NCBI GenBank assembly: GCA_040880005.1
Contig: JBBDJG010000028.1
Coordinates: 11,395-75,394 of the forward strand
Source: Solirubrobacterales bacterium
Lineage (GTDB): Bacteria > Actinomycetota > Thermoleophilia > Solirubrobacterales > JBBDJG01
Length of the DNA stretch: 64,000 nucleotides
Reading direction: 5' to 3'
A program made the translations under genes and the position numbers. Positions 7,748 to 56,188 of the stretch are shown here, one piece after another (position 1 is the stretch's first letter; every line of letters starts with the position of its first letter). The notes below the pieces were generated by a model that worked only from the letters and a program-made list of their open reading frames with translations, was not told where the DNA came from and made no database searches.

Positions 7748-8286
7748 AACTCGACCGCTCGCGCGCGGCGCTGATCGTGGTGGACGTGCAGGAGGCGTTT
7801 CGGCCGGCGGTTCTCGACTTCGAGCGGATAGCGCTCAACACGGCGGTGCTGGTGCAGGGCGCGCGGATACTGGAGCTGCCGGTGCTGGTGACCGAGCAAT
7901 ACCCGAAGGGCCTCGGGCACACCGTGCCCGAGGTGGCAGAGCACCTCGAAGGCATAGAGCCGATCGAGAAGATGGCGTTCAGCGCTGCGGCTGCGGCGAG
8001 CTTTCCGGGAACGCTGCAAAACAGCGGCCGCGACCAGGTGCTGCTGTGCGGGATCGAGTCGCACGTGTGCGTCAATCAAACGGCCGAGGATCTGCTCGCG
8101 GATGACTTGGAGGTGCACGTCGCGCGCGATGCGGTCACCTCTCGCAGCGAGGAGAACCGGGAGCTGGGCCTGCGCAAGATGGAGCGCTCGGGCGCGATGC
8201 TGACCAGCGTCGAGACGGCGTTGTTCGAGCTGCTCAGAGAGGCCGGGACTCCCGAGTTCAAGCAGATTCAGGCGTTGATCAAATGA
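7744..8286 (+). CDS. Isochorismatase-family hydrolase embedded in the pyr operon
   Basis: ALIVVDVQEAF...LPVLVTEQYPKGLGHTVPEV...LLCGIESHVCVNQTA carries the catalytic Cys of cysteine hydrolases. ATGA overlaps link it to both pyrC and carA. Only the last 180 aa of track ORF 6745..8286 are real. Confidence 0.8.
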   Translation: MKLDRSRAALIVVDVQEAFRPAVLDFERIALNTAVLVQGARILELPVLVTEQYPKGLGHTVPEVAEHLEGIEPIEKMAFSAAAAASFPGTLQNSGRDQVLLCGIESHVCVNQTAEDLLADDLEVHVARDAVTSRSEENRELGLRKMERSGAMLTSVETALFELLREAGTPEFKQIQALIK

Positions 8287-9434: not shown

Positions 9435-9457
9435 AGTTCGCGTACACCGCATCGCCA

Positions 9458-9520
9458 GAGTTCCCGGTTTTTCCGTCTAAGGAAAAACCGGAATATGTTC
9501 TGCGGCAAAACCGGAATATG
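9458..9520 (+). repeat. Palindromic element copy B, in the carA-carB spacer
   Basis: GAGTTCCCGGTTTTTCC-GTCTAA-GGAAAAACCGGAATATGTTCTGCGG has a perfect 11-bp stem. It is followed by a second half-copy, AAAACCGGAATATG. Confidence 0.75.
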
Positions 9521-9531
9521 GAGCAAACTGA

Positions 9532-12831
<3,300 letters not shown>

Positions 12832-12899
12832 TGACCCTTCCAGAAACATGTAACCGGAAATGGCGGCCCCGGAACACCGCCATGTATCGTCCTCGGTCG

Positions 12900-12923
12900 C
12901 CTGAATATGCGGGCATATTCAGG
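12900..12923. promoter_or_regulatory. Perfect AT-rich hairpin/palindrome in the carB-pyrK spacer
   Basis: CCTGAATATG-CGGG-CATATTCAGG has a 10-bp perfect stem. It is nested in a 190-nt spacer that also has the stems ATGGCGG/CCGCCAT and the distal pair CCCTTCCAG(12837)/CTGGAAGGG(13007). Confidence 0.5.
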
Positions 12924-13024
12924 CTTCAGCGCCGAAGGCGCGTGCGAGCGCGAAGCGCGAGATCCTCGCCTGACGGTGCCCAGGTCTCGCCATTCCCTGG
13001 CCAACGTTCCTGGAAGGGCCACCA

Positions 13025-13921
13025 GTGACGCTGCCGGAGTCAGACGTGGCCGAACTCGAGCCGGGGATCGCCGCCGCCCAGCCGGGCCCTCGGACGCCGG
13101 CGCCGCTGGGCCGGCGGGCCTGCCCCGTAACGCTGTCGGAGCCGGTCGGTCGCTACCGGATGATCGGGCTCGAAGATCGAGGTGGACCCACTCCGCTCCC
13201 CGGGCAGTTCTACATGCTCGCCTGTGCCGATGGCTGGGGCTCGGACCTCGGCGGCGAGCGTCCATATCTTCCGCGCGCGTTCTCCGTGTGCCGTGTGCGG
13301 GGCGCACGACTCGACTTCCTGATCGACGTGGTGGGACCGGGGACCGAGCGACTCGCGTCGATGGCTTTGGGCGAGCGTGCATGGGCGCTCGGGCCGCTGG
13401 GAATCGGTTTCACCGCGCCGGATGGCGTCGAGTCGAGCGCACCCGGTGCGCGCGCGCTACTGGTCGGCGGCGGCATCGGCATCGCACCGCTCGTGATCTG
13501 GAATGAGGCACTGGCCGGGAACGTCTCCAACGTCGCGCTCGGCTTCCGCGACGAGGAATTCGCGGCCGCGGCCTCGCTGTTGGGGGCCAACGTCTCGCTT
13601 GCCACCGACGACGGCTCGGTCGGACACGCGGGACTCGTGACGGACCTGCTGTCCGAGCAACTCGAGCGAAATTCCGACCGAAATTCCGACCGAAATTCCG
13701 CGGTGGTGGTGTATGCGTGCGGTCCACCGGCGATGCTCGATGCGATCAGGCGCATCTGCACCGAGCGAGGCGTACCTGCGCAACTCGCGCTCGAGCAGGC
13801 GATGGCGTGTGGCTACGGCGCGTGTTTCGGATGCGTCGTGCGCACTCGAGACGGCTACCGCCGTCTGTGCGTGGACGGCCCGATCGTCGCAGCTTCGGAC
13901 TTGCACGAGGAGTGGCAGTGA
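13025..13921 (+). CDS. pyrK: Dihydroorotate dehydrogenase electron-transfer subunit (start uncertain)
   Basis: GQFYML, the FAD/NAD-binding fold, YACGPPAM and the C-terminal 2Fe-2S cysteines MACGYGACFGCV are present. Confidence 0.85.
   Translation: MTLPESDVAELEPGIAAAQPGPRTPAPLGRRACPVTLSEPVGRYRMIGLEDRGGPTPLPGQFYMLACADGWGSDLGGERPYLPRAFSVCRVRGARLDFLIDVVGPGTERLASMALGERAWALGPLGIGFTAPDGVESSAPGARALLVGGGIGIAPLVIWNEALAGNVSNVALGFRDEEFAAAASLLGANVSLATDDGSVGHAGLVTDLLSEQLERNSDRNSDRNSAVVVYACGPPAMLDAIRRICTERGVPAQLALEQAMACGYGACFGCVVRTRDGYRRLCVDGPIVAASDLHEEWQ
13667..13702 (+). repeat. 12-bp tandem repeat x3 inside pyrK
   Basis: CGAAATTCCGAC CGAAATTCCGAC CGAAATTCCGCG encodes (RNSD)x3. It is AT-rich compared with its surroundings. 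Confidence 0.9.
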
Positions 13922-14865
13922 CGCTTGCCGCGCAGTCACCCGGTGGAGGGCCGGACCTCTCGCTGCGCCTTGCCGGGCTCACGCTCGGGTTTCCCGTGAT
14001 CAACGGCTCCGGCACGTTCGATGCGATTGCGGCACTTCGCACATTCGGAGACGGCCTGCGAGAAAGCTTCCCGTTTGCTGCATTCGTGTCGAAGACGATC
14101 ACACCGCACCCGCGCGGTGGCAACCGGCCGCCGCGGCTGTGGGAGACGCCGGCCGGGATGATCAACTCGATCGGCTTGCCGAACAAAGGGTTGGAGGGGT
14201 TCCTGGCGCACGACCTACCTGAGCTTGGGACCCTGGCGGTTCCGCTGGTGGTGAGCGTCGCCGCCTTCGACCATGACGGTTTCGCCAGAATGGTCGAGAC
14301 GGTCGGCGCCCGCCCGGAGGTGGCTGCGCTTGAATTGAACGTCTCCTGCCCCAACGTGAAATCCGGCTGCGTGATGGGATCCGACCCGCGTGAAACGGCC
14401 GAACTGCTGGAGCACGTGCGGCCGCGGACCGGAAAGCCCTTGATCGTGAAGCTGACGCCCAACGTGAGCGACATCGCCCCGATCGCGATCGCGGCGGAAC
14501 AGGGCGGCGCCGACGCGGTCTCGTTGATCAACACACTGCGCGCGCTGGCGATCGATCACGTCAGCGGCCGGCCGGCGCTGGGTGCCATCAGGGGAGGCCT
14601 ATCGGGCCCGGCCGTTCGGGCGATCGCGTTGGACATGACCCACTCGGCGAGCTCTAGCGTGAGCGTTCCGGTTATTGGCATGGGCGGCATCCAGTGCGGC
14701 CGCGACGCGCTCGAGTTCTTCGACGCGGGAGCGAATTGTGTTGCGATTGGCACAGAGAACTTTCGCGACCCCGTGGCCGGCCTGAGAGTCCGCGACGAGT
14801 TGGCCGCCGCGCTTGCCGAGCGCGGACACGGTGCTTTGCAACGCGTTGTAGCGCCGGCGCGCTGA
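13918..14865 (+). CDS. pyrD: Dihydroorotate dehydrogenase 1B catalytic subunit
   Basis: The GTG start overlaps the pyrK stop (GTGA). Supporting motifs are FPVINGSGTF, GMINSIGLPNKG, LNVSCPN and IGMGGI. Confidence 0.9.
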   Translation: MTLAAQSPGGGPDLSLRLAGLTLGFPVINGSGTFDAIAALRTFGDGLRESFPFAAFVSKTITPHPRGGNRPPRLWETPAGMINSIGLPNKGLEGFLAHDLPELGTLAVPLVVSVAAFDHDGFARMVETVGARPEVAALELNVSCPNVKSGCVMGSDPRETAELLEHVRPRTGKPLIVKLTPNVSDIAPIAIAAEQGGADAVSLINTLRALAIDHVSGRPALGAIRGGLSGPAVRAIALDMTHSASSSVSVPVIGMGGIQCGRDALEFFDAGANCVAIGTENFRDPVAGLRVRDELAAALAERGHGALQRVVAPAR

Positions 14866-14985
14866 GCCGGGCCAGAGGCGGGGACTTCGGTAGGAGAAAG
14901 TTCGACTTGCCTCGATCCCACTCGACCTGTACCAAAGGTCGAGCATGCTATGCAGGACGCGACAAAAAAGATTTGATGCGACGTG

Positions 14986-15013
14986 TTGCACGGAACGCGC
15001 GCGTGCGTATAAT
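14986..15013 (+). promoter_or_regulatory. Sigma-70/SigA-type promoter of mihF, implying a leaderless or near-leaderless mRNA
   Basis: TTGCAC (14986-14991), a 16-nt spacer, then TATAAT (15008-15013). The ATG at 15022 is 8 nt downstream with no SD. Confidence 0.6.
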
Positions 15014-15021
15014 CGCCGCCC

Positions 15022-15354
15022 ATGCCCGCCGCCACGAAGACCTCAGCGAGCGCCCCCCAGCGGTCCTTAACCCAAAGGATGGAGGCGCTCAAGAGGGCGA
15101 ACCAGATCAGGACCCGGCGAGCGAAGTTGAAACGGGACCTGCGCGCGGGTAACGCGAACATCCAGGCGCTGCTGCTCGACCCGCCCGAGTATCTCCAAAG
15201 CGCCAAGGTCGCCGATATGTTGTTGTCCGTGCCGAAGTACGGTCAGGTGAAGGTGCACAAGATCCTGATGCAGTGTCGGATCTCGCCGAGCAAGACGATC
15301 GGCGGCCTGTCACCGCGGCAGCGCACCGAGCTGGTCGGCTACTTCAAGAAGTAG
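15022..15354 (+). CDS. mihF: Actinobacterial integration host factor mIHF
   Basis: ALKRANQIRTRRAKLKRDL...KVADMLLSVPKYGQVKVHKIL... and its position immediately upstream of gmk-rpoZ match conserved actinobacterial synteny. Confidence 0.85.
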   Translation: MPAATKTSASAPQRSLTQRMEALKRANQIRTRRAKLKRDLRAGNANIQALLLDPPEYLQSAKVADMLLSVPKYGQVKVHKILMQCRISPSKTIGGLSPRQRTELVGYFKK

Positions 15355-15379
15355 GACGTAGGCGCGACGGGCAGCGCTC

Positions 15380-15940
15380 TTGGGCGAGGGAAAGCTGTTC
15401 GTGGTGACAGGCCCCTCGGGCGTGGGCAAGGGCACGCTGATCGGCCGCCTGCTCGGACGGGAGCCGCAGCTCGAGCTGTCGGTCTCCGCAACGACGCGGG
15501 AGCCTCGCCCGGGCGAGACCGCGGGCGTCGACTACCACTTCATGGACGAGTCGGAGTTCCGCACTCACGTTGCCGCCGGCGAGCTGGTCGAGCATGCCCG
15601 CTACTCGGGAAACCTTTACGGGACATTGCGATCGGAGGTCGAGCCGCGCATCGAGCGCGGCGCGGGCGTGGTGCTCGAGATCGAGGTGCAGGGCGCCCGC
15701 CAGGTGCGAGAGAGAATGCCCGAGGCGGTGCAGATCTTCATCGCCCCGCCTTCGCCGGAATCGCTACGCGAACGCCTCGAAGGGCGGGGCACAGACACCG
15801 CTGAGCAGATTGAACAGCGCCTTCGGGTCGCAAGCCAAGAATTGGCGGCACGTGACGAGTTTCGTCACGTGATCGTCAACGACGATCTCGACCGAGCCGC
15901 GTCCGAGCTGCACGATCTCGTGCGCTCCAAGCTGGGCTGA
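15380..15940 (+). CDS. gmk: Guanylate kinase
   Basis: It has the P-loop TGPSGVGKGT, plus SATTREPRPGE and DYHF. Confidence 0.95.
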   Translation: MGEGKLFVVTGPSGVGKGTLIGRLLGREPQLELSVSATTREPRPGETAGVDYHFMDESEFRTHVAAGELVEHARYSGNLYGTLRSEVEPRIERGAGVVLEIEVQGARQVRERMPEAVQIFIAPPSPESLRERLEGRGTDTAEQIEQRLRVASQELAARDEFRHVIVNDDLDRAASELHDLVRSKLG

Positions 15941-16044
15941 GGCAGCGTCTCGGCGGCGGCGTCTCGATTCGCGACCGCTCGACCGGGCTCCGCTAGAATT
16001 AGGACTTCAAAGGCTTCGCCCCATCAATCTCACAGGGAAGGCAC

Positions 16045-16275
16045 ATGATCCAGCCCCGGATAGACACACTGCTCGAGCAAGTGGACTCGCACTACGCGGC
16101 CGTCGTCGTGGCTGCAAAGCGAGCGCGGCAGATCAACAACTACTACCACACGCTCGGAGAGGGAGTCTTTGAGGAGTTCCCGCCTCCGATGGTGGACACG
16201 CCGTCCAAGAACTATCTGACAATCGCGCTCGAGGAAGTGGCACAGGGCAAGATCGCCTTCCACTACCGCGCCTGA
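16045..16275 (+). CDS. rpoZ: DNA-directed RNA polymerase subunit omega
   Basis: The 76-aa product contains SHYAAVVVAAKRARQINNYY. AGGGAAGG serves as SD, and a TAGAAT -10-like hexamer lies at 15994-15999. Confidence 0.9.
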   Translation: MIQPRIDTLLEQVDSHYAAVVVAAKRARQINNYYHTLGEGVFEEFPPPMVDTPSKNYLTIALEEVAQGKIAFHYRA

Positions 16276-16288
16276 GCAGGAGCAATCC

Positions 16289-17551
16289 ATGGCGCGAGTG
16301 CTGCTTGGGGTCTGTGGTGGGATCTCGGCATACAAGTCCGTAGAGCTGGCGCGGCTCGGCACGAAGGCTGGGCACGCGGTCCGCGTCGTACAAACGCGAA
16401 GGAGTCTCGAGTTCGTCGGGCGAGCGACGTTCGAGGCGATCACCGGGGCTCCGGTCTTGGTCGACGAGTTCGAGCGCGATCCGGCGCGCGGCAGCTACCC
16501 GGGTGAGGCATCTCTCGACCATGAGCCGATCAGCCATCTCGAGCTGGTGCGGCGCTGCGACGTTTACTGCATAGCTCCCGCGACCGCGAACACGATCGCG
16601 AAGCTGGCCGGTGGCCACGCCGACAGCCTGATCGCGTCGGCCTATCTCGCGTGTGCCAGCCCGGTGATACTTGCGCCGGCGATGAACAACCGCATGTACG
16701 GACATCCGGCAACGACCGCGAACCTGGAGCTGCTGCGCGAGCGGGGCGTGCATGTGGTGACCCCCGGGACGGGCGCGCTCGCCTCGCGTGGTGAGTGGGG
16801 CATCGGCAGGCTGGCCGAGCCGGCGGAGCTGCTGGCTGCAATCGAGCGCGCGGCGCCGATCGGGGCACCACGATCGCTGGACGGGACGCGAGTGCTCGTA
16901 AGCGCCGGCGGAACCCGCGAGCCCGTTGACGCCGTGCGCTACATCGGCAACCGTTCGAGCGGGCGCATGGGCTTTGCGCTTGCCGAGGAAGCCGCTCGGC
17001 GGGGTGCCCAGGTAACCGTGGTGGCGGCGAACGTCTCGCTCGCAAGGGCCCCCGGCATCGAGTACGTCGATGTCGAGACGGCCGAGCAGCTGCGCGCTGC
17101 GGCGCTGGAGCAATTCGATCGCTGCGACGTGCTGTTGATGGCTGCCGCGGTGGCCGACTTCAGGCCCGCTTCACCTCGGCAGTCGAAGATCTCGAAGCAA
17201 GATCGCGAAGCGCTCACGCTCGAGCTCGAGGCAACCGCCGACGTGCTCGGTGAGGTTTCGCGGGGGCGCAGACCCGATCAGACCGTGATCGGCTTTGCCG
17301 CCGAGCACGGAGAGGAGGGGATCGACCGTGCGCGCGGCAAGCTGGCCCACAAACAGCTCGACGCGATCGTCGTCAACGACATCTCGCGCGCCGAGATCGG
17401 CTTCGACTCCGACGAGAACGAGGTGACGATCATCGGTCCGGCCGGCGACCTCCATCTCGACAAGGCGTCCAAGGCCGAGATCGCGCACGGCCTGGTCGAC
17501 TTCGTGGAGAGTCTGAGAGTCGCCGCGCGGAGTCCGGAGCGCGACGCATGA
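16289..17551 (+). CDS. coaBC: Bifunctional phosphopantothenoylcysteine decarboxylase / phosphopantothenate-cysteine ligase
   Basis: It has an N-terminal flavoprotein domain (LLGVCGGISAYK...PAMNNRM) and a C-terminal CoaB domain (VRYIGNRSSGRMG). Confidence 0.95.
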   Translation: MARVLLGVCGGISAYKSVELARLGTKAGHAVRVVQTRRSLEFVGRATFEAITGAPVLVDEFERDPARGSYPGEASLDHEPISHLELVRRCDVYCIAPATANTIAKLAGGHADSLIASAYLACASPVILAPAMNNRMYGHPATTANLELLRERGVHVVTPGTGALASRGEWGIGRLAEPAELLAAIERAAPIGAPRSLDGTRVLVSAGGTREPVDAVRYIGNRSSGRMGFALAEEAARRGAQVTVVAANVSLARAPGIEYVDVETAEQLRAAALEQFDRCDVLLMAAAVADFRPASPRQSKISKQDREALTLELEATADVLGEVSRGRRPDQTVIGFAAEHGEEGIDRARGKLAHKQLDAIVVNDISRAEIGFDSDENEVTIIGPAGDLHLDKASKAEIAHGLVDFVESLRVAARSPERDA

Positions 17552-17928
17552 GTGGATCCGGCATTGCGTCCGAGCACGACGCCTACACGTTGTTCCAGCA
17601 AGGCGTGGCGCTGATCTCCGGACGTCATTGGGCACAGGCGGTCGTTCCGCTGGAAAAGGCTCGGCGCCTCGAGCCCGACAAGACGTCGATACGTGAGGCG
17701 CTCGGTCGGGCCCACTTTCATAGCGGTCGCTATCGAGACGCCGCACGCGAGTTCGAGGCGATCGTGGAGCTGAGCCCGACCAACGACTACGCACACTTCT
17801 GCCTCGCTCGTTCGTTCGAGAAGCTCGGCAACCGCATGGCGGCGCGCCGCCACTTCTCGCTTGCCTGCGGGTTGCGTCCCGATCGCTCGGACTACCGCTT
17901 GTACCGCGAGCGCGCTCGGGCAGCCTGA
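17548..17928 (+). CDS. Small TPR-repeat protein
   Basis: 126 aa with helical repeats with TPR periodicity (YTLFQQGVALISGRHWAQAV...LGRAHFHSGRYRDAAREFEAIVELSP). An ATGA overlap links it to coaBC. Confidence 0.6.
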   Translation: MSGSGIASEHDAYTLFQQGVALISGRHWAQAVVPLEKARRLEPDKTSIREALGRAHFHSGRYRDAAREFEAIVELSPTNDYAHFCLARSFEKLGNRMAARRHFSLACGLRPDRSDYRLYRERARAA

Positions 17929-17941
17929 CGAAAGACCGTCC

Positions 17942-18379
17942 GTGAAGGCGCTCGTGCAGCGTGTCAGCTCGGCATCGGTCAGCGTCGGCGATGACACCTT
18001 GGCGTCGATCGGAGAGGGACTGGTGGTGCTGGTGGGAGTAGCCGCCAACGACCGCACCGAGCAGGCCGACAAGCTCGCAGCGAAGATTGCGCGCCTGCGC
18101 GTGTTCGACGGCGACGACGGGCGCATGGATCGTTCGCTGCTGGACACCGGCGGCGGCGCCCTGTGCGTGAGTCAGTTCACGCTCTACGCCGACACTCGCA
18201 AGGGCCTGCGGCCGAGCTTCACCGCGGCTGCGGAGCCTGAGCTGGCCGAGCCGGTGTACGAGGAGTTTTGCGATCGGCTGGCGGCGCATGGCGTCGAGGT
18301 CCAGCGTGGCAGGTTCGGCGCTCGCATGAGCGTGGCGCTGGTCAACGAGGGCCCGGTCACGTTGTTGCTCGAAACATAG
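17942..18379 (+). CDS. dtd: D-aminoacyl-tRNA deacylase
   Basis: VKALVQRVSSASVSV...GLVVLVGV...SQFTLYADTRKGLRPSF...VNEGPVT match the family. The GTG start is in frame within track ORF 17861..18379. Confidence 0.9.
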   Translation: MKALVQRVSSASVSVGDDTLASIGEGLVVLVGVAANDRTEQADKLAAKIARLRVFDGDDGRMDRSLLDTGGGALCVSQFTLYADTRKGLRPSFTAAAEPELAEPVYEEFCDRLAAHGVEVQRGRFGARMSVALVNEGPVTLLLET

Positions 18380-18452
18380 GCCGACTCGCGCTACGCCGCC
18401 TGCGGTGGCTTGCGCGGTCGGGAACTCTGAGGGCACGGACACCGAGCCCTGG

Positions 18453-18500
18453 GAGTTCCCGGTTTTCGCGTTTAAGCGAAAACCGGAAATATTCTGCGCC
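18453..18500 (+). repeat. Palindromic element copy C (best-preserved copy), in the dtd-rimP spacer
   Basis: GAGTTCCCGGTTTTCGC-GTTTAA-GCGAAAACCGGAAATATTCTGCGCC has a perfect 11-bp stem (18459-18469 paired with 18476-18486). Confidence 0.8.
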
Positions 18501-18570
18501 ACCCGTCCGAGATGCCGCTGCGCCACCCGCACGCCCCGACGTCGCCTGCAGCGGACCGCCCGTCGACGCT

Positions 18571-18597
18571 TTGAAGCGGGGTTTGTGCCGCTATACT
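18571..18597 (+). promoter_or_regulatory. Candidate promoter of the rimP-nusA-infB leader
   Basis: TTGAAG (18571-18576), a 15-nt spacer, then TATACT (18592-18597). The spacer is short, so confidence is low. Confidence 0.35.
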
Positions 18598-18655
18598 CCT
18601 GCTTCGCAAAGTTTCAAGGAGACCTGCGGTCCGAGTCGGGCCGCAAACACTGGAA

Positions 18656-18678
18656 GTGGGCCTCCGCCCACTTTTTTT
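18656..18678 (+). terminator. Intrinsic terminator in the rimP leader (candidate attenuator)
   Basis: GTGGGC-CTCC-GCCCAC is followed by TTTTTTT. It ends 7 nt before the rimP ATG and is preceded by a second hairpin, GCGGTCC-GAGTC-GGGCCGC, at 18625-18643. Confidence 0.65.
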
Positions 18679-18684
18679 GCGCCA

Positions 18685-19227
18685 ATGACCAAGAGCAGGA
18701 GACGAGTGAAGCCCGAATCGAGCGTAAGCGAGAGCACCCGTACGGCGGTTGCGCCGGACGCGGTGGTGGATGAGATCGAAGCACGCCTCGCGCAACTCGA
18801 GCCGGACCTGGAGCTGCTTGCCGTCGAGGTTGCGCCGACGAGGGGATCGCGCACCGTGCGAATCTTCCTCGACGACCCCGATGGCGTGACCCACGAAACG
18901 TGCGCTCGCGTCACCGGACATCTCGCCGACCTGCTGCGTGAGTACTCGGTCGAGGTTTCCTCACCGGGGCCCCAGCGTCCGCTGAGCAAGCCTGCGCACT
19001 TCCGGCGCTTCATCGGCAGCCGGGCGAGAGTCAGAACTGATGAGGCGATCGATGGTCGCAGTGACTTCAAGGGCGAGCTGATAACCGCAGACGACGAGGG
19101 CGTGACGCTCGCAGGCGAGTGGGGGACGGTCACGATCGACTACGAGCGCGTTCGGCGAGCCAACCTGCTCGCGGGTGGAGATGCGGTGAGCCGTCAGAGC
19201 AAGCGACCTTCTGGAGGGCTGGAGTGA
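18685..19227 (+). CDS. rimP: Ribosome maturation factor RimP (alternative GTG start at 18706 after AGGAGA)
   Basis: LELLAVEV...RIFLDDPDGVTHETCARVTGHLADLL...YSVEVSSPGPQRPL carries the RimP signature. Only the C-terminal part of track ORF 18268..19227 is real. Confidence 0.85.
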   Translation: MTKSRRRVKPESSVSESTRTAVAPDAVVDEIEARLAQLEPDLELLAVEVAPTRGSRTVRIFLDDPDGVTHETCARVTGHLADLLREYSVEVSSPGPQRPLSKPAHFRRFIGSRARVRTDEAIDGRSDFKGELITADDEGVTLAGEWGTVTIDYERVRRANLLAGGDAVSRQSKRPSGGLE

Positions 19228-20789
19228 GCAAAGAGATCGTGGAAGCCGTTCACGCGTTGGAGCGCGAGAAGGGGATTTCGTCTGAGCGGCTCATGCTCGC
19301 GCTGGAGGACGCCCTGCTTTCGGCGTACAAGAAGACCGAGAACTCTGCGCGCTACGCGCGCGTCGACATGGATCGCGACTCGGGCGACTTCCGCGTGTTC
19401 GAGCTGATCCTTCCCGCCGACCTCGAGGAGCAGCTGATCGAAGAGGCGATCGTCGAGAAGGAGAAGGAGGAAGAGGAAGCCGGTGGCCCGGTTGATCCCG
19501 AAACAGGCGAGCGCCGCCAGCCCGAGGAGCTGGAGATCGATCTCACCCAGATTCAGCCGCACATGGACAGGGTCAAGCAACGGGATGTGACGCCCGGCGA
19601 CTTCGGTCGCATAGCAGCGCAGACTGCGAAGCAAGTGATCCTGCAGCGAATCCGCGAAGCCGAGCGCGACATGATGTTCGACGAGTATCAGGACCGCGTT
19701 GGTGAGATGATCACTGGCATCATCCAGCAGTCCGACTCGCGCTACACACTCGTGCAGCTACGCGAGCGTGTCGAGGCGCTGCTGCCCAAGTCCGAGCAGG
19801 TCGACAACGAGCGCTACGACCACGGCATGCGGGTCAAGGCCGTGATCACGGAAGTGTCGGGATCGACCAAGGGCCCGAGCATCATCGTCTCGCGCCGTAG
19901 CCCCGAGCTGATCAAGAAGCTGTTCGAGCTGGAGGTTCCCGAGGTCGCGGACAGCTTGGTGGAGATCGTCAATGTCGCGCGTGAACCGGGTTACCGATCG
20001 AAGATCGCCGTTATCTCCCACACCGATGGAGTGGACCCGGTGGGTGCCTGTGTCGGACCACGTGGATCCCGCGTGCGCATGGTCGTATCCGAGCTACGTG
20101 GCGAGAAGATCGACATCATCCCCTTCAACGACGAGCCTGCGCGGTTCGTTGCCAAGGCTCTGTCGCCCGCTCGTGTGCGCGAGGTGCTGGTTGACGACGA
20201 GAACAAACAGGCGACCGTCGTCGTTCCCGACGATCAGCTCTCACTCGCGATCGGCAAGGAAGGGCAGAACGCGCGGCTCGCCGCTCGCCTGACCGGCTGG
20301 CGGGTCGACATCAAGTCCGAGAGCGAGTTCGCCGAAGTGGAGGCCGACCTGGGCATCGAGTCCGAAGAGGAGGTCTCCGGTCGCTGCGCGGCCGTGCTGG
20401 GCTCCGGCAAGCGCTGCCCGAACGCCGCGCTGCCCAGCTCTCGCTACTGCGGCCTGCCGGCCCACCAGGAGCTGGCCGACCAGGAGGGCGACCGAGTTGG
20501 CGGCGCGGAGGCCCCCGAGCCCGACGAGGACTCCGGCGAGCCCGAGACCGCCGTCGAAGCCAGCGAGGCGGTTGAAGAAGCCGAGGCCGAGGCCGTGGAG
20601 GAAGTCGTCGAGGCGGCTGTTGAAGAAACCGTCGAGGAAGCGCTTGTGGAGGCGGTAATCGAGGAAGTCGTGGAAGAGGCCGTCGAGGAAGCAGCGGAGG
20701 AGGCTGCCGCGGAGGCACCGGAGGCGCCGGCAGCCGACACGGAAGCGCAGCGGCCCGGCGGCGACGGCGAGGCCGAAACGGAGCGCTGA
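19224..20789 (+). CDS. nusA: Transcription termination/antitermination factor NusA with an NTD insertion and a Cys/His + acidic C-terminal extension
   Basis: The GTG start overlaps the rimP stop. EIVEAVHALEREKGIS, the S1 domain and KH domains (FGRIAAQTAKQVILQRIREAER, GACVGPRGSRV, LAIGKEGQNARLAARLTGW) identify NusA. The tail has C-x9-C-x10-C-x4-H followed by an E/A/V-rich repeat. Confidence 0.93.
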   Translation: MSKEIVEAVHALEREKGISSERLMLALEDALLSAYKKTENSARYARVDMDRDSGDFRVFELILPADLEEQLIEEAIVEKEKEEEEAGGPVDPETGERRQPEELEIDLTQIQPHMDRVKQRDVTPGDFGRIAAQTAKQVILQRIREAERDMMFDEYQDRVGEMITGIIQQSDSRYTLVQLRERVEALLPKSEQVDNERYDHGMRVKAVITEVSGSTKGPSIIVSRRSPELIKKLFELEVPEVADSLVEIVNVAREPGYRSKIAVISHTDGVDPVGACVGPRGSRVRMVVSELRGEKIDIIPFNDEPARFVAKALSPARVREVLVDDENKQATVVVPDDQLSLAIGKEGQNARLAARLTGWRVDIKSESEFAEVEADLGIESEEEVSGRCAAVLGSGKRCPNAALPSSRYCGLPAHQELADQEGDRVGGAEAPEPDEDSGEPETAVEASEAVEEAEAEAVEEVVEAAVEETVEEALVEAVIEEVVEEAVEEAAEEAAAEAPEAPAADTEAQRPGGDGEAETER

Positions 20790-20792
20790 TAG

Positions 20793-23198
20793 GTGGCGAA
20801 GAAGCGCGTCTACGAGATCGCCAAGGAGCGCGGGCTCGCAAGCAAGGATCTGCTCGCGAAACTTCGTGAGGCGGGCCTCGACGTGAAAGCGGCTGCGTCA
20901 ACCGTCGACGAAAAGGACGCGCTCGCAGCGCTGAAAGGCACCAAGAAGGCAGCGCAGCCGAAGGCGAAGGCACCGACACGCAAGACCGCCACCAAAGCGC
21001 CCGCCAAGGCCGTGAGAGCAGCCAAGGCAGCCAAGGCAACAAAGGCAGCAACCACGAAGGCCGCCAAGACTGCGAAAACGACGAAGGCCGCCAAAGCAAC
21101 AAAGGCCGCAACAAAGGCCGCAACCAAGGTCGCGAAGCCGGCCGGCAACGCAAAGGCGGAACGCGACGGTCCGGCCGCCGCGCCCGTGCCGCCACCGGCG
21201 ACGGCCCAGCCAAACGGACAGGGCGGCGCGCCACCGCGCCCGAAGCGCACTGTCGCGGCCGAGCGCACCGGGTCGGTGCCGACGCGACGGCGCCGGGTAG
21301 TGATCGACTCGCAGGCTTCACGCCGCCAGCAAGGAGGCGGCCCTCCGCAGCAACAGCAGCAACGCCGACGGCGAAGCCGGGGCCGCGGAGCGCCACCGCC
21401 GGAACCTTCGGAAGCGCCGACGGCGACCGCCGTTGCCGCGCCGGAGGCGGTGCGAGTCCCGTCGGGCTCGACCGTGCGCGAGGTGGCCGAGCACTTGGGG
21501 CTCCAGACGGCCGAAGTGATCAAGAAGTTGATGTCGATGGGCGAGATGGCAACGCTCACCCAGACGCTCTCCGACGAAGCGATCGGCGTGCTTGCCAACG
21601 AGTTCGACAGGGAGGTCGAGGTCGTGAGCATGGCTGCAGAGGATGCCGAGCTTGCGGTTGTCGATGCGGAGAAGGACCTCGTCCCGCGCCCGCCGGTGGT
21701 GACGATCATGGGACACGTCGATCACGGCAAGACGTCGCTCCTGGATGCGATTCGTGAGACGGAAGTTGTGGCCGGAGAGGCGGGAGGCATCACGCAACAC
21801 ATCGGCGCCTACCAGGTCCACCACAGCGACAAGCTCGTGACGTTTCTCGACACTCCCGGCCACGAAGCGTTCACCGCAATGCGAGCTCGCGGAGCCAAGG
21901 TGACCGACATCGCTGTGATCGTCGTCGCGGCGGACGATGGAGTGATGCCGCAGACGACGGAGGCGATCGATCACGCGAAAGCGGCCGGAGTTCCGTCGAT
22001 CATCGCCGTCAACAAGATCGACAAGGAAGGCGCGCAACCCGATCGCGTGCGCAATGAGCTGGCGGCTCAGAGCCTGACGCCCGAAGAGTGGGGCGGCGAG
22101 ACCGTCTATTGCGACGTGTCGGCCAAGACCAAACAGGGCCTCGACCATCTGCTCGACATGATCCTGCTGGTGGCGGAGGTGGAGGAGCTGAAGGCCAACA
22201 AGAACGTCTCGGCTAGTGGCACGGTGATCGAGTCGCAGCTCGACCCCGGGCGCGGCCCGGTGGTCACGGTCCTGGTCCAGCGCGGCACGTTGCGAATGGG
22301 CGACGCGCTCGTGGCGGGCGCGCATGCCGGACGGGTGCGGGCCATGCATAACTTCGTCGGCACGCGGATCGACGAAGCGCTTCCGGGCGAGCCCGCCGAG
22401 GTGCTCGGCTTTGACAGCGGGCCCGATGCCGGCGAGGCGGTGCGAGTCGTCGAATCCGACAAGGAAGCGCGCCAGCTCGCCGAGGAGCGGGGACATCGGT
22501 TGAAGACGGAGGCCCTCGCCCGTCGCCAGCGCGCCGCTGTCAGTCTCGAGGACGTCTTCGAGCGGGTCAAGGAGGGCAAGACCACGGAGTTGAACCTGAT
22601 CGTCAAGGCGGACGTTGCCGGATCGCTCGAAGCGATCCAGGACGAGATCGCCAAGCTCCCCGATCAAGACATCACGATCCACATCATCCATACCGGCATC
22701 GGGGGTATCTCGGAGTCGGACGTAATGTTGGCGGCGGCGTCCGGCGCGGTGATCATCGGGTTCAACGTGCGCCCGCTCGCGGAGGCAAAGACGCTTGCCG
22801 ATCGCGAAGGCGTCGATGTGCGCACCTACACGGTGATCTACCGCGTCACGGAGGAGCTGCGGGCGGCGATGCAGGGAATGCTCGAGCCCGAAGAGGTCGA
22901 GCAGTCGCTGGGGATGGCCGAGGTGCGGAACCTCTTCAAGGCCTCCAAGGTCGGCACGATCGCCGGCTGTCACGTCACGCAGGGCAAGATCGTCAGGTCT
23001 GCGAAGGCACGCCTGGTTCGCGACGGCACAATCGTCAACGAAGGAAGGATCTCCTCCTTGAAGCGCTTCAAGGAGGACGCGAGGGAGGTCGAGGAAGGCT
23101 TCGAGTGCGGCATCACGCTCGAGGACTTCCAGGACGTCAAGGTCGATGACGTGATCGAGGCGTACGAAACCAAGAAGGTCGAGCGCAAGCTCGCATAG
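20793..23198 (+). CDS. infB: Translation initiation factor IF-2
   Basis: The N-terminus is [13 protein letters not shown] Lys/Ala/Thr-rich low-complexity linker precedes the GTPase domain ([26 protein letters not shown]). Confidence 0.97.
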
Positions 23199-23207
23199 CC
23201 GGCGGCG

Positions 23208-23507
23208 GTGCCGTTCCTAGCGGCGATAACGGTTTACCTGCATTTCGACGACAACGGAAGCCTCAAAGGCAAGCGCAAGGAACTCGTATCGCTACGTTCG
23301 GTGCTGAACCGAAGATTTGGCGCGGCGGTCGCCGAGGTCGACCATCACGACCTGTGGCAGCGCTCAACGCTGGTACTGGCGCTGGTGGGGTCGTCGCACA
23401 CCGATCTCGACCACCTCGTCGATGGAGTTGAGCGCTATCTGCTGAGCCGGCATCCCGAATCGGTGCGGATCGAGCGCCGGCTCGTCTCGTTCGAGGACCT
23501 CTCATAG
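23208..23507 (+). CDS. DUF503 (YlxP-like) protein
   Basis: The 99-aa product (LHFDDNGSLKGKRKELVSLRSVLNRRF...AVAEVDHHDLWQRS) sits in the conserved position between infB and rbfA. Confidence 0.8.
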   Translation: MPFLAAITVYLHFDDNGSLKGKRKELVSLRSVLNRRFGAAVAEVDHHDLWQRSTLVLALVGSSHTDLDHLVDGVERYLLSRHPESVRIERRLVSFEDLS

Positions 23508-23589
23508 GCGCGTTGCCGCGCGGGTGCCTCGGGGCTTCGGATATAGTCGAACGGGGTCGCAAGGGGGCTGGCGCGCGAGGCTGATTGCT

Positions 23590-23931
23590 ATGGGCAAAGA
23601 AAGGATGCGAAAGGTCAATGAGGCTATGCGCGAGGTCCTTGGCATGGCGATAGCCACGGAACTGAAGGATCCACGGGTTGGGTTCGTGACCGTTACGTCC
23701 GTGGACACGAGCCCTGATCTACGCCATGCGCATGTCTATGTGAGCGTACTGGGGGATGAGCAGCAGCGCGCGGAGACTCTCGACGGCCTCGGCTCCTCGC
23801 ACGGATACCTACAGTTCAGAGTGGCTTCGGAGCTGCGACTCAAGAACACTCCGCAGCTCGACTTTCGCTATGACGAAAGCGTGGACCGTGGAATGCGCAT
23901 CGGCCGGCTTCTCCAAGGAGACGCCGAGTGA
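23590..23931 (+). CDS. rbfA: Ribosome-binding factor A
   Basis: RMRKVNEAMREVLGMAIATELKDPRVGFVTVTSVDTSPDLRHAHVYVSV matches RbfA. The ATG is in frame within track ORF 23524..23931. Confidence 0.92.
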   Translation: MGKERMRKVNEAMREVLGMAIATELKDPRVGFVTVTSVDTSPDLRHAHVYVSVLGDEQQRAETLDGLGSSHGYLQFRVASELRLKNTPQLDFRYDESVDRGMRIGRLLQGDAE

Positions 23932-24923
23932 GTGTGGATACCGCGACCGAGCGCGCCCGGGTGGTGGCCGAGCTGCGCTCCGCGGACAGACTGCTCGTCA
24001 CCACGCACGAGAATCCCGACGGAGACGCTCTCGGATCACTTGTCGCGATGCACGAGATCTTGAAGCAGCTAGGCAAGGACTCGGTGATGTTCATGTCGGA
24101 GGAGGACTTCCCGCTGCCCTACGAGTATCGCCAGCTGCCCCTGGCAGACGTTGAGCACGATCTTCCCGCCGACGCGGACCAGCGCACGATCGTGTTTCTG
24201 GACTGCGGCAATATCGATCGTATGCCCGTCAACTTCCTCAAGCGGGAGGACGCGCACATCGTCAACATCGATCACCATCACGACAACACACGTTTCGGCA
24301 CGGCCAATCTCGTCATCGGTAGCGCTTCCTGCACGACCGAGATCATCTATGGGCTTACACGCGACCTCGAGATCGAACTGACAGCTTCGATCGCGGAAGC
24401 ACTGTATGTGGGGCTCGTGACCGACACCGGCAAGTTTCAATACGAGAACACGACTGCCGAGTCGCACCGCATGGCTGCGGAGCTGATCGAGTCCGGCGTG
24501 GACGTGCACCGCGTCTTCCGCACGCTGTACGAGGACGTGCCGTTCCCCAAGCTCGCGCTGCTGGCGCGTGTGCTGTCGCGGGTCGAGCGTCACGATGACG
24601 GCCTGCTCGCGATCTCCTACATCGAGCGCTTGGACTACGAGGAGACCGGCGCCGACGAGAGCTTTTCCGAGGGAATCGTCGATCATCTGCGTGCGCTGCA
24701 AGGAACGCAGCTGGCGGCGCTCGCGCGGGCGCAGCTCAAGGAGGGGCGTGAGCGTCTCTGGAAGGTCAGTCTGCGCGCGGGCAGCGATCGCGTCGACGTC
24801 AGCGCGATCGCTCGCGAGCAGGGCGGCGGGGGCCATCAGCAGGCGGCCGGCTTCGCGACCGAGTTGTCGCACGAGGAGCTGGTGCGGTTTCTGCTCGACG
24901 AGGTGAACGCGCAGCTCCGATGA
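23928..24923 (+). CDS. nrnA: DHH-family phosphoesterase, NrnA-like (oligoribonuclease / pAp phosphatase)
   Basis: TTHENPDGDALGS, FLDCG and NIDHHHDN give the DHH motifs, and GGGHQQAAG gives the DHHA1 motif. Confidence 0.85.
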   Translation: MSVDTATERARVVAELRSADRLLVTTHENPDGDALGSLVAMHEILKQLGKDSVMFMSEEDFPLPYEYRQLPLADVEHDLPADADQRTIVFLDCGNIDRMPVNFLKREDAHIVNIDHHHDNTRFGTANLVIGSASCTTEIIYGLTRDLEIELTASIAEALYVGLVTDTGKFQYENTTAESHRMAAELIESGVDVHRVFRTLYEDVPFPKLALLARVLSRVERHDDGLLAISYIERLDYEETGADESFSEGIVDHLRALQGTQLAALARAQLKEGRERLWKVSLRAGSDRVDVSAIAREQGGGGHQQAAGFATELSHEELVRFLLDEVNAQLR

Positions 24924-24982
24924 GAGCCGGCGGCACGGTGAGCGCACCGCAGAGCGCGCGGCCAACTGCTTGACTTCGACTC

Positions 24983-25849
24983 ATGCAAGCGAACGCGAGT
25001 GCGTGTGGTGTGCTGCTGGTGGCAAAGCCCGTCGGCATCAGCTCACACGATGTTGTCGAGCGCATTCGCCGTGCGCCTGTGGCGAGAGGTGCGCGGGTCG
25101 GACACACCGGTACGCTCGATCCATTCGCGAGCGGCCTGCTGCTGATCGTGATCGGAAGGGCCACGCGCTTTCAGCGCTATCTGGTCGGCCTGCCGAAGTC
25201 CTATCGCGCGGTCGCGCGCTTCGGCGTGCGCTCCGACACCGGCGATCCGACCGGTACGCTGACGGCGACCGGGAGCACGACGAACGAGCACGACGTTCGC
25301 GAGGCGCTTGCGCCGCTCACCGGTGAAATCAGCCAGCGGGTGCCGATGGCGTCGGCCGTCAAGGTCGGCGGTGAGCGCTTGTATCGCAAAGCACGGCGCG
25401 GTGAGACGGTCGAGACGCCGGTCCGCACGATCACGATCGAGCGGCTCGACCTGGTCGAATTCGACGAGACCGACCAGCGCGCGACGCTCGAGATCGACTG
25501 CTCGAGCGGCACCTACGTGCGCCGGCTCGTGCAGGATCTCGGCGAGGCATGCGCCACCGGCGCCCACTGCGAAACGCTCGTTCGCACAGCGGTGGGGCCG
25601 TTCTCGCTCGAGGACGCCGACGAGCGCAATCTGATCGACTTGGCGCATGCTCTCTCGTTTTTGCCCGAACGTGCCCTCTCGTCCGAGGAGGCCGAGCGTG
25701 TGCGGCACGGCGTGGCATTGCCGGCGAACGGCGAGATAGACGCTGATGGCGGGCCCGTTCGCCTCACGGGGAACGGCCGGCTCATAGCCGTCGCGGAGCG
25801 CGATGATCGGACGCTCAAGCCGGTGACAGTGATACCCGAGGGCGAATGA
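24983..25849 (+). CDS. truB: tRNA pseudouridine(55) synthase
   Basis: GVLLVAKPVGISSHDVV and GHTGTLDPFASGLLLIVIG contain the catalytic Asp. Confidence 0.93.
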   Translation: MQANASACGVLLVAKPVGISSHDVVERIRRAPVARGARVGHTGTLDPFASGLLLIVIGRATRFQRYLVGLPKSYRAVARFGVRSDTGDPTGTLTATGSTTNEHDVREALAPLTGEISQRVPMASAVKVGGERLYRKARRGETVETPVRTITIERLDLVEFDETDQRATLEIDCSSGTYVRRLVQDLGEACATGAHCETLVRTAVGPFSLEDADERNLIDLAHALSFLPERALSSEEAERVRHGVALPANGEIDADGGPVRLTGNGRLIAVAERDDRTLKPVTVIPEGE

Positions 25850-26799
25850 AGGTCTATCGGGACCTCGACGAGGTGGCGGCCGCCGATCCGGGTCGTGCAA
25901 TAGCGCTCGGCACGTTCGACGGAGTTCACCTCGGCCACCGGCGCGTGATCGGCGCGGCGATCGACCGAGCTGCGCGCTCTCGGCTGCGCTCCTGCGTCGT
26001 CACCTTCGATCCGCATCCTGAGCGCGTGTTGCGTCCCGATCGCCCGCTCAAGCTGTTATCGACGCTCGCCATCAAAGCCGAACGCATCGGTGAGTTGGGA
26101 GCGGACGAACTGGTCGCGATTCCGTTCACGACCGAGTTGTCGCGCATGAGCGCGGAAGAGTTCTGTGCCGGCGTGCTAGCGAAGCGGCTCGGCGCCACGT
26201 ATGTCAGCGTGGGCGCCAACTTTCGCTTTGGCCGCGGCGCCGAGGGAGACGCATCCACGCTCGTGGCGCAGTCTCAATTCGAAACCGAGACGGTTGCGCT
26301 GGTCGAATGGCACGGCGCTCCGATTTCCTCAACGCGAATCAGGGAGCTGGTGCAACGCGGGGACGTGCGCGACGCGGCGGAGCTTTTGGGCGCACCGTTC
26401 GCGCTCGAGGGCGAGGTCGTGAGCGGTGACAAGCGGGGGCGAGAGCTGGGTGTTCCGACCGCCAACATCGCTGCTGCGCAAGATCTCGTGATGCCTGCGG
26501 CCGGCGTTTACGCGGGTATCGTGCGTGCACGCGGGCGAGATGTACCTTCGGCGATCAACATCGGCGTCAGACCGACGTTCGGCTCGGGTGGCGAGCTGGT
26601 CGTGGAAGCGCATTTGATCGACTTCGACGCCGACCTGTACGGCGAGACACTTCGTGTCTCGTTCTTGGAGCGACTTCGTGAGGAGCTGAAGTTCGATTCG
26701 GCGGACGAGCTGGTGGCTCAGATGCGACGCGACGTGGGGGCCTCGCGCGAGATCGCGCGCTCCGCGACCGGAGCGGCAAGGGCCTCGTCAGGTCGCTGA
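25846..26799 (+). CDS. ribF: Bifunctional riboflavin kinase / FMN adenylyltransferase
   Basis: [15 protein letters not shown], the segment [10 protein letters not shown] and the kinase motif [13 protein letters not shown] are present. Confidence 0.93.
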
Positions 26800-26830
26800 C
26801 CGGCGACGGCTTTCTGGTACCTTCTCCCGC

Positions 26831-27100
26831 GTGACACTGACCAAGGACGCAAAGAGCGAGTTGATCCAGAAGTTCGCCAAGCACGAGGGCGACACCGGTT
26901 CCGCAGAGGTCCAGGTGGCGCTGCTGACCGCACGGATCAACGAGCTGACCGAGCATCTGCGCGGGCACCGCAAGGATCATCACTCGCGGCGCGGGCTGCT
27001 GATGCTGGTCGGTCAGCGGCGGCGTCTGCTCGAGTACCTCTCCAGGGAGGACGTCGAGCGCTATCGCGGCCTGGTCCAGGAGCTCGGGCTACGTAAGTAG
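26831..27100 (+). CDS. rpsO: 30S ribosomal protein S15
   Basis: The 89-aa product contains [51 protein letters not shown]. Confidence 0.97.
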
Positions 27101-27115
27101 ATACGTCGCGCCGCA

Positions 27116-27325
27116 GAGCTCCCGATTTTCGCGTCCGAGAACGTGTTTCAAAATCCCCCGCGCCCGTCCGGTGGCGCCGGATCGTTGCGGATGCTTCATC
27201 TTCGGTCGGGGCAATGGCGCTGCCATTGCGCCCTCCCTGCATCCTCGCCCCGCTTGATCCGGCGCCACCAGCCTCACACGCGGGATTCCAAAATACGTTC
27301 TGAGCGAAAATCGGAATATGTTCCG
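27116..27325 (+). repeat. Palindromic element copy D: a split/long version forming a ~210-nt extended hairpin in the rpsO-pnp leader
   Basis: The left arm GAGCTCCCGATTTTCGCGTCCGAGAACGTGTTTCAAAATCCC pairs with the right arm GGGATTCCAAAATACGTTCTGAGCGAAAATCGGAATATG. Inner stems are CCGGTGGCGCCGGATC/GATCCGGCGCCACCAG and the apical GCAATGGC/GCCATTGC. Confidence 0.7.
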
Positions 27326-27441
27326 ATCGGGAGCCCTGAGGGCTCGAGTAGCGGCAGTACCTGCGCTGCTACCATGCGCGGAAATTCCGGACAGAGAACG
27401 AATCGACGCGGCCAACCGGAGGCCGCCGAAAGGAAACACAT

Positions 27442-56088: not shown

Positions 56089-56126
56089 TTCCGATTTCTC
56101 CTTAGACGGCAAAATCGGTAGCTGCG
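56085..56126 (+). repeat. Palindromic element copy E (degenerate), overlapping the PPIase stop codon
   Basis: GTGATTCCGATTTCTCC-TTAGAC-GGCAAAATCGGTAGCTGCG is colinear with copies B and C, with 2 stem mismatches and a shortened 3' part. Confidence 0.55.
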
Positions 56127-56188
56127 AAGGCACGTCTCCCGACCGGTCGTCCAGTTACCCGTTCATTCGGCCATGAGGTCTTCACATA

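Follow-up and report, generated by a model that had tools for sequence, protein, structure and literature searches.

A probable REP- and MITE-like hairpin repeat family in a lineage of Solirubrobacterales

Why does one AT-rich palindrome recur at operon junctions and inside genes of a GC-rich genome? The question is raised by a 64,000-nucleotide (nt) stretch of DNA with 67% GC from a Solirubrobacterales bacterium (contig JBBDJG010000028.1 of assembly GCA_040880005.1; hereafter the window), in which a first-pass annotation had noted at least six copies of a hairpin, the six it located being termed A to F here. It had proposed three roles: a selfish element resembling repetitive extragenic palindromic (REP) sequences, miniature transposable elements with inverted repeats (MITEs) or Rickettsia palindromic elements (RPEs), a conserved RNA hairpin, or a duplex binding site for a protein. 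We find that the copies belong to a family of hairpin repeats that is best read as REP/MITE-like and new for Actinomycetota. The family is probably a non-autonomous short interspersed repeat of a lineage of Solirubrobacterales, and among the three roles the selfish one is best supported. The conserved unpaired parts together with covarying stems, the record of insertions and deletions, the arrays and the subfamily structure all argue for a REP-like repeat.

All six sites were present at or near the positions first reported and aligned colinearly once D, E and F had been reverse-complemented. The original layout, colinear with E alone inverted, was thus correct in its alignment and not in its orientations: D, E and F all run opposite to A, B and C. 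As a control for chance we used the degenerate pattern CCGNNTTTNNCGNNTAAGNNRAAANCGGAA, covering the stem, the loop and the GGAA end. It matched exactly at A, B, D and E, and was absent from 100 dinucleotide shuffles of the window, even with 3 mismatches allowed. A repeat finder reported the pairs E/A and A/D as 79-83% inverted repeats. Two covariance models were built, the first (R1) from the first 11 copies and the second (R2) from metagenomic copies only, so that R2 is independent of the window. R2 recognised the five full copies A, B, D, E and F with 48-64 bits (E-values of 6e-15 to 8e-11; Table 1). Thus, the hairpin family is real, and the window contains these five full copies, the composite C and the decayed partners B' and C', which the first-pass annotation had overlooked.

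To follow the family beyond the window, we scanned 185,579 representative genomes with a strict pattern and found matches at 7 places only. Six lie in three other Solirubrobacterales metagenome-assembled genomes (MAGs) and share the flanks of the element; the seventh, in a Clostridia MAG, is without them. A slightly looser pattern matched 60 stretches of metagenomic DNA. Of these, 51 were recognised by R1 with up to 75 bits (soil; median 67% GC), and the remaining 9 are chance matches in DNA of 25-55% GC, with the flanks absent. The hairpin and its flanks are therefore common to 57 loci outside the window (51 soil-metagenomic and 6 in MAGs). Locally the copies are dense, with 6-8 per 64-kb window, compared to a single, decayed one in ~59 kb of syntenic DNA of relatives. 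The one match in viral contigs was discarded as chance, in DNA of 27% GC. At the gathering score, Rfam matched the whole window with tRNA only, and at B and C, with E-values up to 10, it returned no family, only sub-threshold chance miRNA-like hairpins. Full-text literature searches for palindromic repeats in Solirubrobacterales, or for REP-associated tyrosine transposases (RAYTs) in Actinobacteria, yielded nothing relevant. These searches are consistent with the initial statement that no named family matches.

The consensus, which rests on 59 anchored copies, describes a unit of ~52 nt, in which 15 nt of 5' extension precede a hairpin of 28 nt and a tail of 9 nt. The ~45 bp first taken for the unit is instead the period of tandem copies (45 nt). 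The 5' extension is conserved and unpaired (consensus GAGCCCTCGGAGCTC; cGaGCCCTCGGAGCTC in the 59-copy form). It leads into a stem of 11 base pairs (bp) with the left arm CCGGTTTT(C/T)(G/C)C, the conserved 6-nt loop GYCTAA (G(C/G/T)CTAA in the 59-copy form) and the complementary arm, followed by the conserved tail AATTGTTCT. The consensus hairpin folds with -26 kcal/mol (z ~-4.5) in either orientation. No GTAG/CGTC tag occurs beside the stem in the 59-copy consensus, the stem being flanked by ...GGAGCTC and the tail. A second small hairpin within the 5' extension was considered and rejected: it folds, yet inspection showed uncompensated variation at its outer bases.

Base pairing in the stem is maintained while its sequence changes. 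Watson-Crick pairs make up 634 of 649 stem pairs (98%). The 15 others comprise 5 GT, 4 AC and 6 of other kinds and show no G.U preference for either strand, so that nothing favours pairing at the RNA level over the DNA level. The stems fall into subfamilies (TTTTCGC/GCGAAAA, TTTTTGC/GCAAAAA, TTTTTCC/GGAAAAA, TTTTGCC/GGCAAAA and TTTTCCC/GGGAAAA) that vary at two or three inner positions and are compensated every time, with the loop and unpaired flanks constant. In an independent alignment, changes on both sides of a pair numbered 66, against 18.4 ± 5.6 after shuffling, and none of 500 shuffles reached this value; the pair types at one stem position include CG 27, UA 24 and GC 9. Which subfamily dominates differs by assembly (6 of 10, 6 of 7 and 4 of 5 copies).

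Comparison with related loci (numbered with the prefix L) revealed gain, loss and decay of copies. Empty sites in relatives, suggested at the outset as a check, were found at A, B, C and F. At A, three relatives have overlapping carA and carB genes (TGATG) without a spacer, flanks and hairpin both being absent, where the window has a 97-nt spacer with copy A and a new GGAG upstream of the GTG start. Site B is empty in L069 and L074, and site C in L074 and L075; the relatives are without the ~200-nt blocks bearing B'/B and C/C', yet the downstream leaders are conserved. The insert at F is present in none of the 120 closest FtsK homologs. At E, two carA genes of 98.2% identity differ by an exact 30-nt insertion or deletion, the L071 allele being without the hairpin and keeping both flanks, and the carA gene of L069 has a decayed copy. 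C' has lost its hairpin interior with end-points unlike those of the carA deletion. Across all loci compared, the 5'-extension motif is followed by the hairpin in 30 of 32 occurrences, indicating that the flanks belong to the element and not to a common target.

The copies are placed mainly behind genes. For gene calling we used a log-odds finder based on codon usage; it was calibrated on the window, where it recovered the known genes. Pfam, or synteny with annotated relatives, served to check the identities of genes near the window copies (carA, carB, D-Tyr-tRNA deacylase, RimP, S15, PNPase, FtsK and cyclophilin). At the other loci, too, the neighbours are ordinary: IF-1, ClpP and a LuxR-type regulator according to translated C-termini, P-II/GlnA, MeaB, LtrA and an ABC ATPase according to Pfam, and one locus that resembles rplL-rpoB-rpoC in size and order. 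Extragenic copies number 71 of 74, intragenic ones 3. We counted 16 copies between convergent genes, 2 between divergent genes and, between co-directional genes, 15 in reverse and 6 in canonical orientation. The stop codon of the converging gene adjoins the tail in 43 of 60 strong copies, and since the distance from stem to stop peaks at 2 nt and at 7-9 nt, it often lies within the element. With convergent pairs excluded, there are 27 cases of a gene reading into the tail end and 10 of the opposite arrangement (p 0.008). The deficit of canonical copies between co-directional genes (p 0.08) is as expected if the canonical orientation is polar. Units also form head-to-tail arrays of 2-3 with an exact 45-nt period, and right halves are duplicated as well; at least 9 such arrays or partial duplications compare with 4-5 inverted dimers (L058, L012, L030, B'/B and C/C').

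Two window copies are read as protein. The peptide encoded by E, ISAFSLGGKGGSSEG, lies in CarA's N-terminal domain, at a place where the solved E. coli CarA has a 10-residue gap. F encodes GSSGSRLAARTGSPSGA, in the same element reading frame as E, and gives an insert of 13-20 residues between FtsK_alpha and the motor domain. Both insertions fall in loops, to which they add 10-18 residues. The carA ortholog in OY970293.1, a complete related chromosome of 3.88 Mb (locus L005), carries the element. Among 120 CarA homologs, one clade is hypervariable at the E site, and its sister clade is fixed for EGKNGEDAATAEGG. Members of the variable clade have element peptides (SAFSLAGKIGSSEG, GFRLGAKSGSSEG), decayed forms (DSRLAARSRSTEG, CPDPPRADRGFGEG) or, in some cases, short remnants. 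The residue changes are paired as the hairpin demands: S with G, R with A, and A/G/D with S/T/I. In the homolog P0028, from a 228-kb JGI contig, NSLRREFGELRGS corresponds to the element in its other open reverse frame, a translation that suggests either that the element inserted here independently or that frameshifts at this site were compensated.

The carA copy is conserved as nucleic acid. Identity among six orthologous carA genes is only 70-79%, and at third codon positions it averages 53%, indicating that synonymous sites are saturated. Within the element, third-position identity rises to 78%, with 8 of 14 such positions invariant, compared to 57 of 358 elsewhere (p 5e-4). The GC content at third positions (GC3) is 0.50-0.64 in the element and 0.85 in carA, rare TTT, TTA and AAA codons being kept. 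The stem is complete in 4 of the 6 orthologs and has one mismatch in a fifth. L005 and L077 have hairpins of different subfamilies between the same flanks, which hints at replacement. The carA element would reflect either selection on the nucleic acid or repeated homogenisation against other copies. Note that an isochorismatase-family gene (window 7744-8286) lies between pyrC and carA in this pyrimidine operon; it occupies the same place in L069, L071, L072 and L076.

Table 1. Copies and remnants of the hairpin repeat in the window, with scores of model R2.
Feature	Position	Strand	Context and parts	R2 (bits)
A	9449-9521	+	carA/carB spacer	63.9
A, 5' extension	9449-9463			
A, hairpin	9464-9491		CCGGTTTTTCC-GTCTAA-GGAAAAACCGG	
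A, tail	9492-9500		AATATGTTC	
A, duplicated right half	9507-9521	+	AAAACCGGAATATGG	
B	18444-18495	+	dtd/rimP spacer; GAGCCCTGGGAGTTC, hairpin, AAATATTCT	62.2
B, hairpin	18459-18486			
B' (tentative)	~18396-18434	-	GC-shifted, decayed, head-to-head with B, directly past dtd stop	14.8
C	27107-27323	+	rpsO/pnp spacer; composite	
C, 5' extension and left arm	27107-27132			
C, right arm and tail	27304-27323			
C'	27314-27345	-	hairpin-deleted remnant, tail-to-tail with C	25.6
D	56082-56133	-	directly past cyclophilin (PPIase) gene	48.0
D, hairpin	56091-56118			
E	8539-8590	-	inside carA, in frame	59.1
E, hairpin	8548-8575			
F	40309-40360	-	inside ftsK, in frame; 71% GC (GC-shifted)	49.5
F, hairpin	40318-40345			

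The individual copies in the window differ in preservation (Table 1). B folds with -23.7 kcal/mol (z -3.1). Its partner B' was assigned tentatively from a solo 5'-extension motif, CCCTCAGAGTTC, and a weak R2 match on the minus strand at 18366-18447 (E-value 0.04). The arms of C had been described as split by ~165 nt; they are indeed split, and form the base of a hairpin of ~215 nt, enclosing a unique hairpin of 170 nt. For these inner 170 nt the data compared contain no other copy, and the 20-nt left part of C is 100% identical to members elsewhere. The whole rpsO/pnp spacer folds with a z of -5.2. C' retains GAGCCCTCAGGGCTC, the stem base CCGA/TCGG and the tail AACATATTC, and was recognised by both models at 27308-27356 on the minus strand (R1, 22.8 bits; R2, E-value 6e-5). 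The tail of D contains the TGA stop codon (56086-56088) of the preceding gene (55456-56088; Pro_isomerase by Pfam).

The same spacers hold other conserved or repeated sequences. Just upstream of rimP, a conserved module (window 18590-18690; L069 19680-19790; L074 1595-1690) comprises a promoter-like GCCGCTATACT and two hairpins that end in the classical terminator GTGGGCCTCCGCCCAC plus T7. It has no Rfam match and resembles a leader or attenuator, or else a small RNA, belonging to the rimP-nusA-infB operon. Before the pnp ATG lies a conserved leader, GGTAGCATCCCCGGAAATTTCCGGA ... GCCAACCGGAGGCNGCCGAAAGGA (window 27355-27440; L074 10455-10540; L075 10290-10375). It includes CGGAAATTCCGG at 27369, which had been listed as a motif related to the hairpin and is instead a pnp-leader motif, conserved in relatives without the element. 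In L074 (10275-10420), the rpsO/pnp spacer has two tandem ~60-nt GC-rich hairpin repeats, CAGCATGAGGGGGGATCGAAGGGGGCGTAGCCCCCTCGTTATCCG, where the window has C. The carA/carB spacer of OY970293.1 (L005 1850-2020) contains an unrelated AT-rich palindrome of AGAAATTAG / CTAATTTCT repeats, and the lineage may therefore carry further hairpin repeat families.

Two further motifs had been linked to the family, and both were rejected as members. The repeat in a pyrK-like gene (window 13663-13700; dihydroorotate dehydrogenase B Fe-S-binding domain) proved to be an in-frame 12-nt coding repeat, CGACCGAAATTC x 3.2, encoding RNSD-RNSD-RNSA. The motif at 12853, which scored 8 bits only with R2, belongs to a site (window 12838-12880) where AGAAACATGTAACCGGAAAT directly follows the carB stop and precedes an ATGGCGG...CCGCCAT hairpin. 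It loosely resembles the reversed tail plus stem base and, at this score, may be an old remnant of the family. Long low-complexity coding repeats of the GAGGAAGC and AAGGCCGC types, with periods of 9-60, were also seen at 20574-21161, in the NusA C-terminus and the IF-2 N-terminus.

How would such copies arise and persist? We propose that copies would be added by insertion and local head-to-tail duplication, survive mainly within a few bases past stop codons and rarely in frame in protein surface loops, and be lost through palindrome deletion. The conserved unpaired parts and freely covarying stems suggest that the element would be recognised as a folded single strand by a trans-acting factor, putatively an enzyme that binds hairpins and resembles a transposase, like those acting on REPs. 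When transcribed, the hairpin probably forms a stem-loop at the mRNA 3' end, and the canonical orientation with its U-rich tail could act as a weak terminator. The data show the family itself, its anatomy, where its copies lie and how they are gained, lost and decayed, and the mobilising enzyme and any role in RNA are what we infer. More tentatively, and at less than even chance, the repeat might be one side of a long-lived partnership in Thermoleophilia with a trans-acting, hairpin-recognising protein, either REPIN-RAYT-like or acting on RNA hairpins, of a type undescribed in Actinomycetota; the repeat would then be under nucleotide-level constraint even in essential genes.

Several observations weigh against a mobile REP/MITE-like repeat. 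The stems of the five full window copies are all different, which gives no hint that the repeat has burst recently in this genome. With the strict pattern, OY970293.1 has only 4 copies, and family copies occurred in just 3 of the 185,579 representative genomes, so that high copy number is not demonstrated genome-wide. Target-site duplications, whose presence had been raised by the first-pass annotation, were not seen in the flanks of the 59 anchored copies, with a possible TGA...TGA at site A only. Terminal inverted repeats beyond the stem were likewise not seen, the conserved ends not being inverted copies of each other. A tblastn search for a Y1 transposase, using IS200 TnpA and E. coli RAYT queries, gave no match below an E-value of 1 in 416 kb, which is a weak test. 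The genes bracketed by copies encode LtrA, P-II, GlnA and similar proteins according to Pfam, and no transposase. The differing end-points of the two deletions make them look like palindrome slippage and not like precise, enzyme-catalysed excision. Finally, the carA copy has persisted across deep divergence with its nucleotides conserved, for which a host function or concerted evolution would account no less well than pure selfishness.

This last point bears on the alternative that the copies are RNA stem-loops serving the host, by 3' protection, as weak or bidirectional terminators or as processing sites past stops, and were multiplied because they are useful. The tight placement at stop codons, with 16 of 60 copies between convergent genes, the orientation bias of genes reading into the tail end, and the third-position invariance and low GC3 of the carA element would all fit such a role. 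So would C, whose arms close a long hairpin between rpsO and pnp at its base; in other bacteria, hairpins cleaved by RNase III regulate pnp at this position. REPs within ~15 nt of a stop in E. coli reportedly can affect translation termination, in work of Liang, Rudd and Deutscher from 2015. As to termination, the canonical hairpin followed by AAUAUGUUCU passes a lenient terminator-like rule (at least 5 T in 8), and A is the sole plus-strand site within 8001-28000 that does so. However, behind genes the reverse orientation is the more frequent, and there GAGCUCCGAGGG comes after the hairpin, without a U-tract. Moreover, the lineage has classical U7 terminators, such as that upstream of rimP, the transcribed strand shows no excess of G.U pairs, and termination of transcription at the copies within carA and ftsK would be deleterious. 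Relatives do without the element at A, B, C and F, and the family is limited to few genomes. We regard it as unlikely, though deserving of some weight, that the copies exist mainly for such a host-serving role; an RNA role as such is plausible.

Two other explanations concern what moves and what is recognised. The hairpin of 28-30 nt might come and go alone, leaving the extension and tail behind as a refillable landing pad. The L071 carA allele, which is without exactly 30 nt and keeps both flanks, the two flanks retained by C', and the different subfamilies between the same carA flanks in L005 and L077 can be read in this manner. But free pads are rare given that 30 of 32 extension motifs carry a hairpin, it is implausible that a 24-nt target should recur behind dozens of unrelated genes, the end-points of the two deletions differ, and relatives with the carA/carB overlap lack both flanks as well as the hairpin. 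This makes the landing pad decidedly improbable. Still harder to sustain, and to our mind very improbable, is the idea that the palindromes are double-stranded sites for a dimeric regulator or nucleoid protein. The near-perfect 11+6+11 palindrome with its conserved outer CCGG and TTTT/AAAA would suit such a protein, but one that reads two identical half-sites has no need of compensated changes in the arms. In addition, the loop and both flanks are asymmetric yet conserved, the copies lie past stops, in arrays and inside genes instead of upstream of genes, and the family is absent from most relatives. Covariation of the arms and the positions of the copies thus disfavour the duplex-site role. 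Three further candidates were rejected: integron attC sites, as the consensus ends are unlike RYYYAAC/GTTRRRY and the neighbours are syntenic housekeeping genes; a SECIS or readthrough signal, as all three stop codons occur beside copies; and parS, Noc or dif-like sites, as the arms of the element covary and its sequence is unlike such sites.

A REP/MITE-like repeat in this lineage would matter in several respects. Small palindromic repeats have been studied thoroughly in Proteobacteria and Cyanobacteria but are almost undescribed in Actinomycetota, and we found none for Solirubrobacterales, an abundant, little-studied soil order. For annotation, the family accounts for the odd AT-rich islands, for loops of additional peptide in CarA and FtsK and for the variability of spacers in core operons (carA-carB, dtd-rimP and rpsO-pnp here; infA, clpP, rpoC and glnB-glnA elsewhere). 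The 45-nt arrays behave like variable-number tandem repeat loci and could serve in strain typing. The parts most worth following up are the copy embedded in carA, a natural test of whether a hairpin inside an essential coding sequence is kept by selection or by concerted evolution, and the missing enzyme: should a cognate enzyme be identified, a new phylum would be added to those with REP-type systems, in this case a variant lacking GTAG/CGTC tags.

How does the family compare with known systems? With intrinsic terminators it shares a stable stem-loop close behind a gene and, in canonical orientation, a partly U-rich tail; in contrast to them, it is one shared sequence at many genes, has intragenic copies and more commonly lies in the orientation without a U-tract. 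Like bacterial MITEs (Correia/NEMIS, ERIC, RUP and Chunjie), it is non-coding, structured, non-autonomous and located near genes, with a presence that varies among relatives, and such repeats can affect neighbouring transcripts. MITEs, however, measure 70-300 bp and have terminal inverted repeats of 15-30 bp, target-site duplications and a parent insertion sequence, none of which was found here. Mycobacterial interspersed repetitive units (MIRUs) are actinobacterial units of ~45-100 bp that form direct tandem arrays in operon spacers and touch stop and start codons. The present family resembles them in its actinobacterial host and in its tandem units in operon spacers; but MIRUs are not hairpins, are unrelated in sequence and are defined in Mycobacterium, and the family is no member. 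RPEs lie in frame in housekeeping genes, adding a peptide and leaving the protein intact (PMC10969869), as the copies in carA and ftsK do. They are nevertheless ~100-150 bp long, compared to a unit of 52 nt, come from a genus of Alphaproteobacteria and have unrelated sequences, and a large proportion is intragenic, compared to 3 of 74 copies here. The likeness to RPEs is one of behaviour only, not of membership.

The closest parallels are with REPs and REPINs, although differences remain. The Solirubrobacterales family has no GTAG/CGTC tag beside the stem, has long conserved unpaired parts on both sides (15 nt and 9 nt), and is dominated by head-to-tail arrays over inverted dimers, unlike REPINs. 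Its host phylum, Actinomycetota, is not among the phyla of the REP survey (PMC3733652), no RAYT was found in the 416 kb covered by the weak test above, and the tens to hundreds of copies typical of REPs are not shown here. That survey of the GTAG/CGTC super-families (Di Nocera 2013, PMC3733652) described REPs that lie downstream of open reading frames, or between genes in convergent or co-directional arrangement, and whose ends can provide stop codons; it also described copies inserted within genes in frame, clustering, and subfamilies specific to a species. In agreement with this description, our family consists of a short imperfect palindrome (a hairpin of 28 nt, compared to 20-40 bp for REPs) with a conserved unpaired part, is mostly extragenic, has ends that supply stop codons, and shows occasional in-frame copies, clusters, subfamilies and long persistence.

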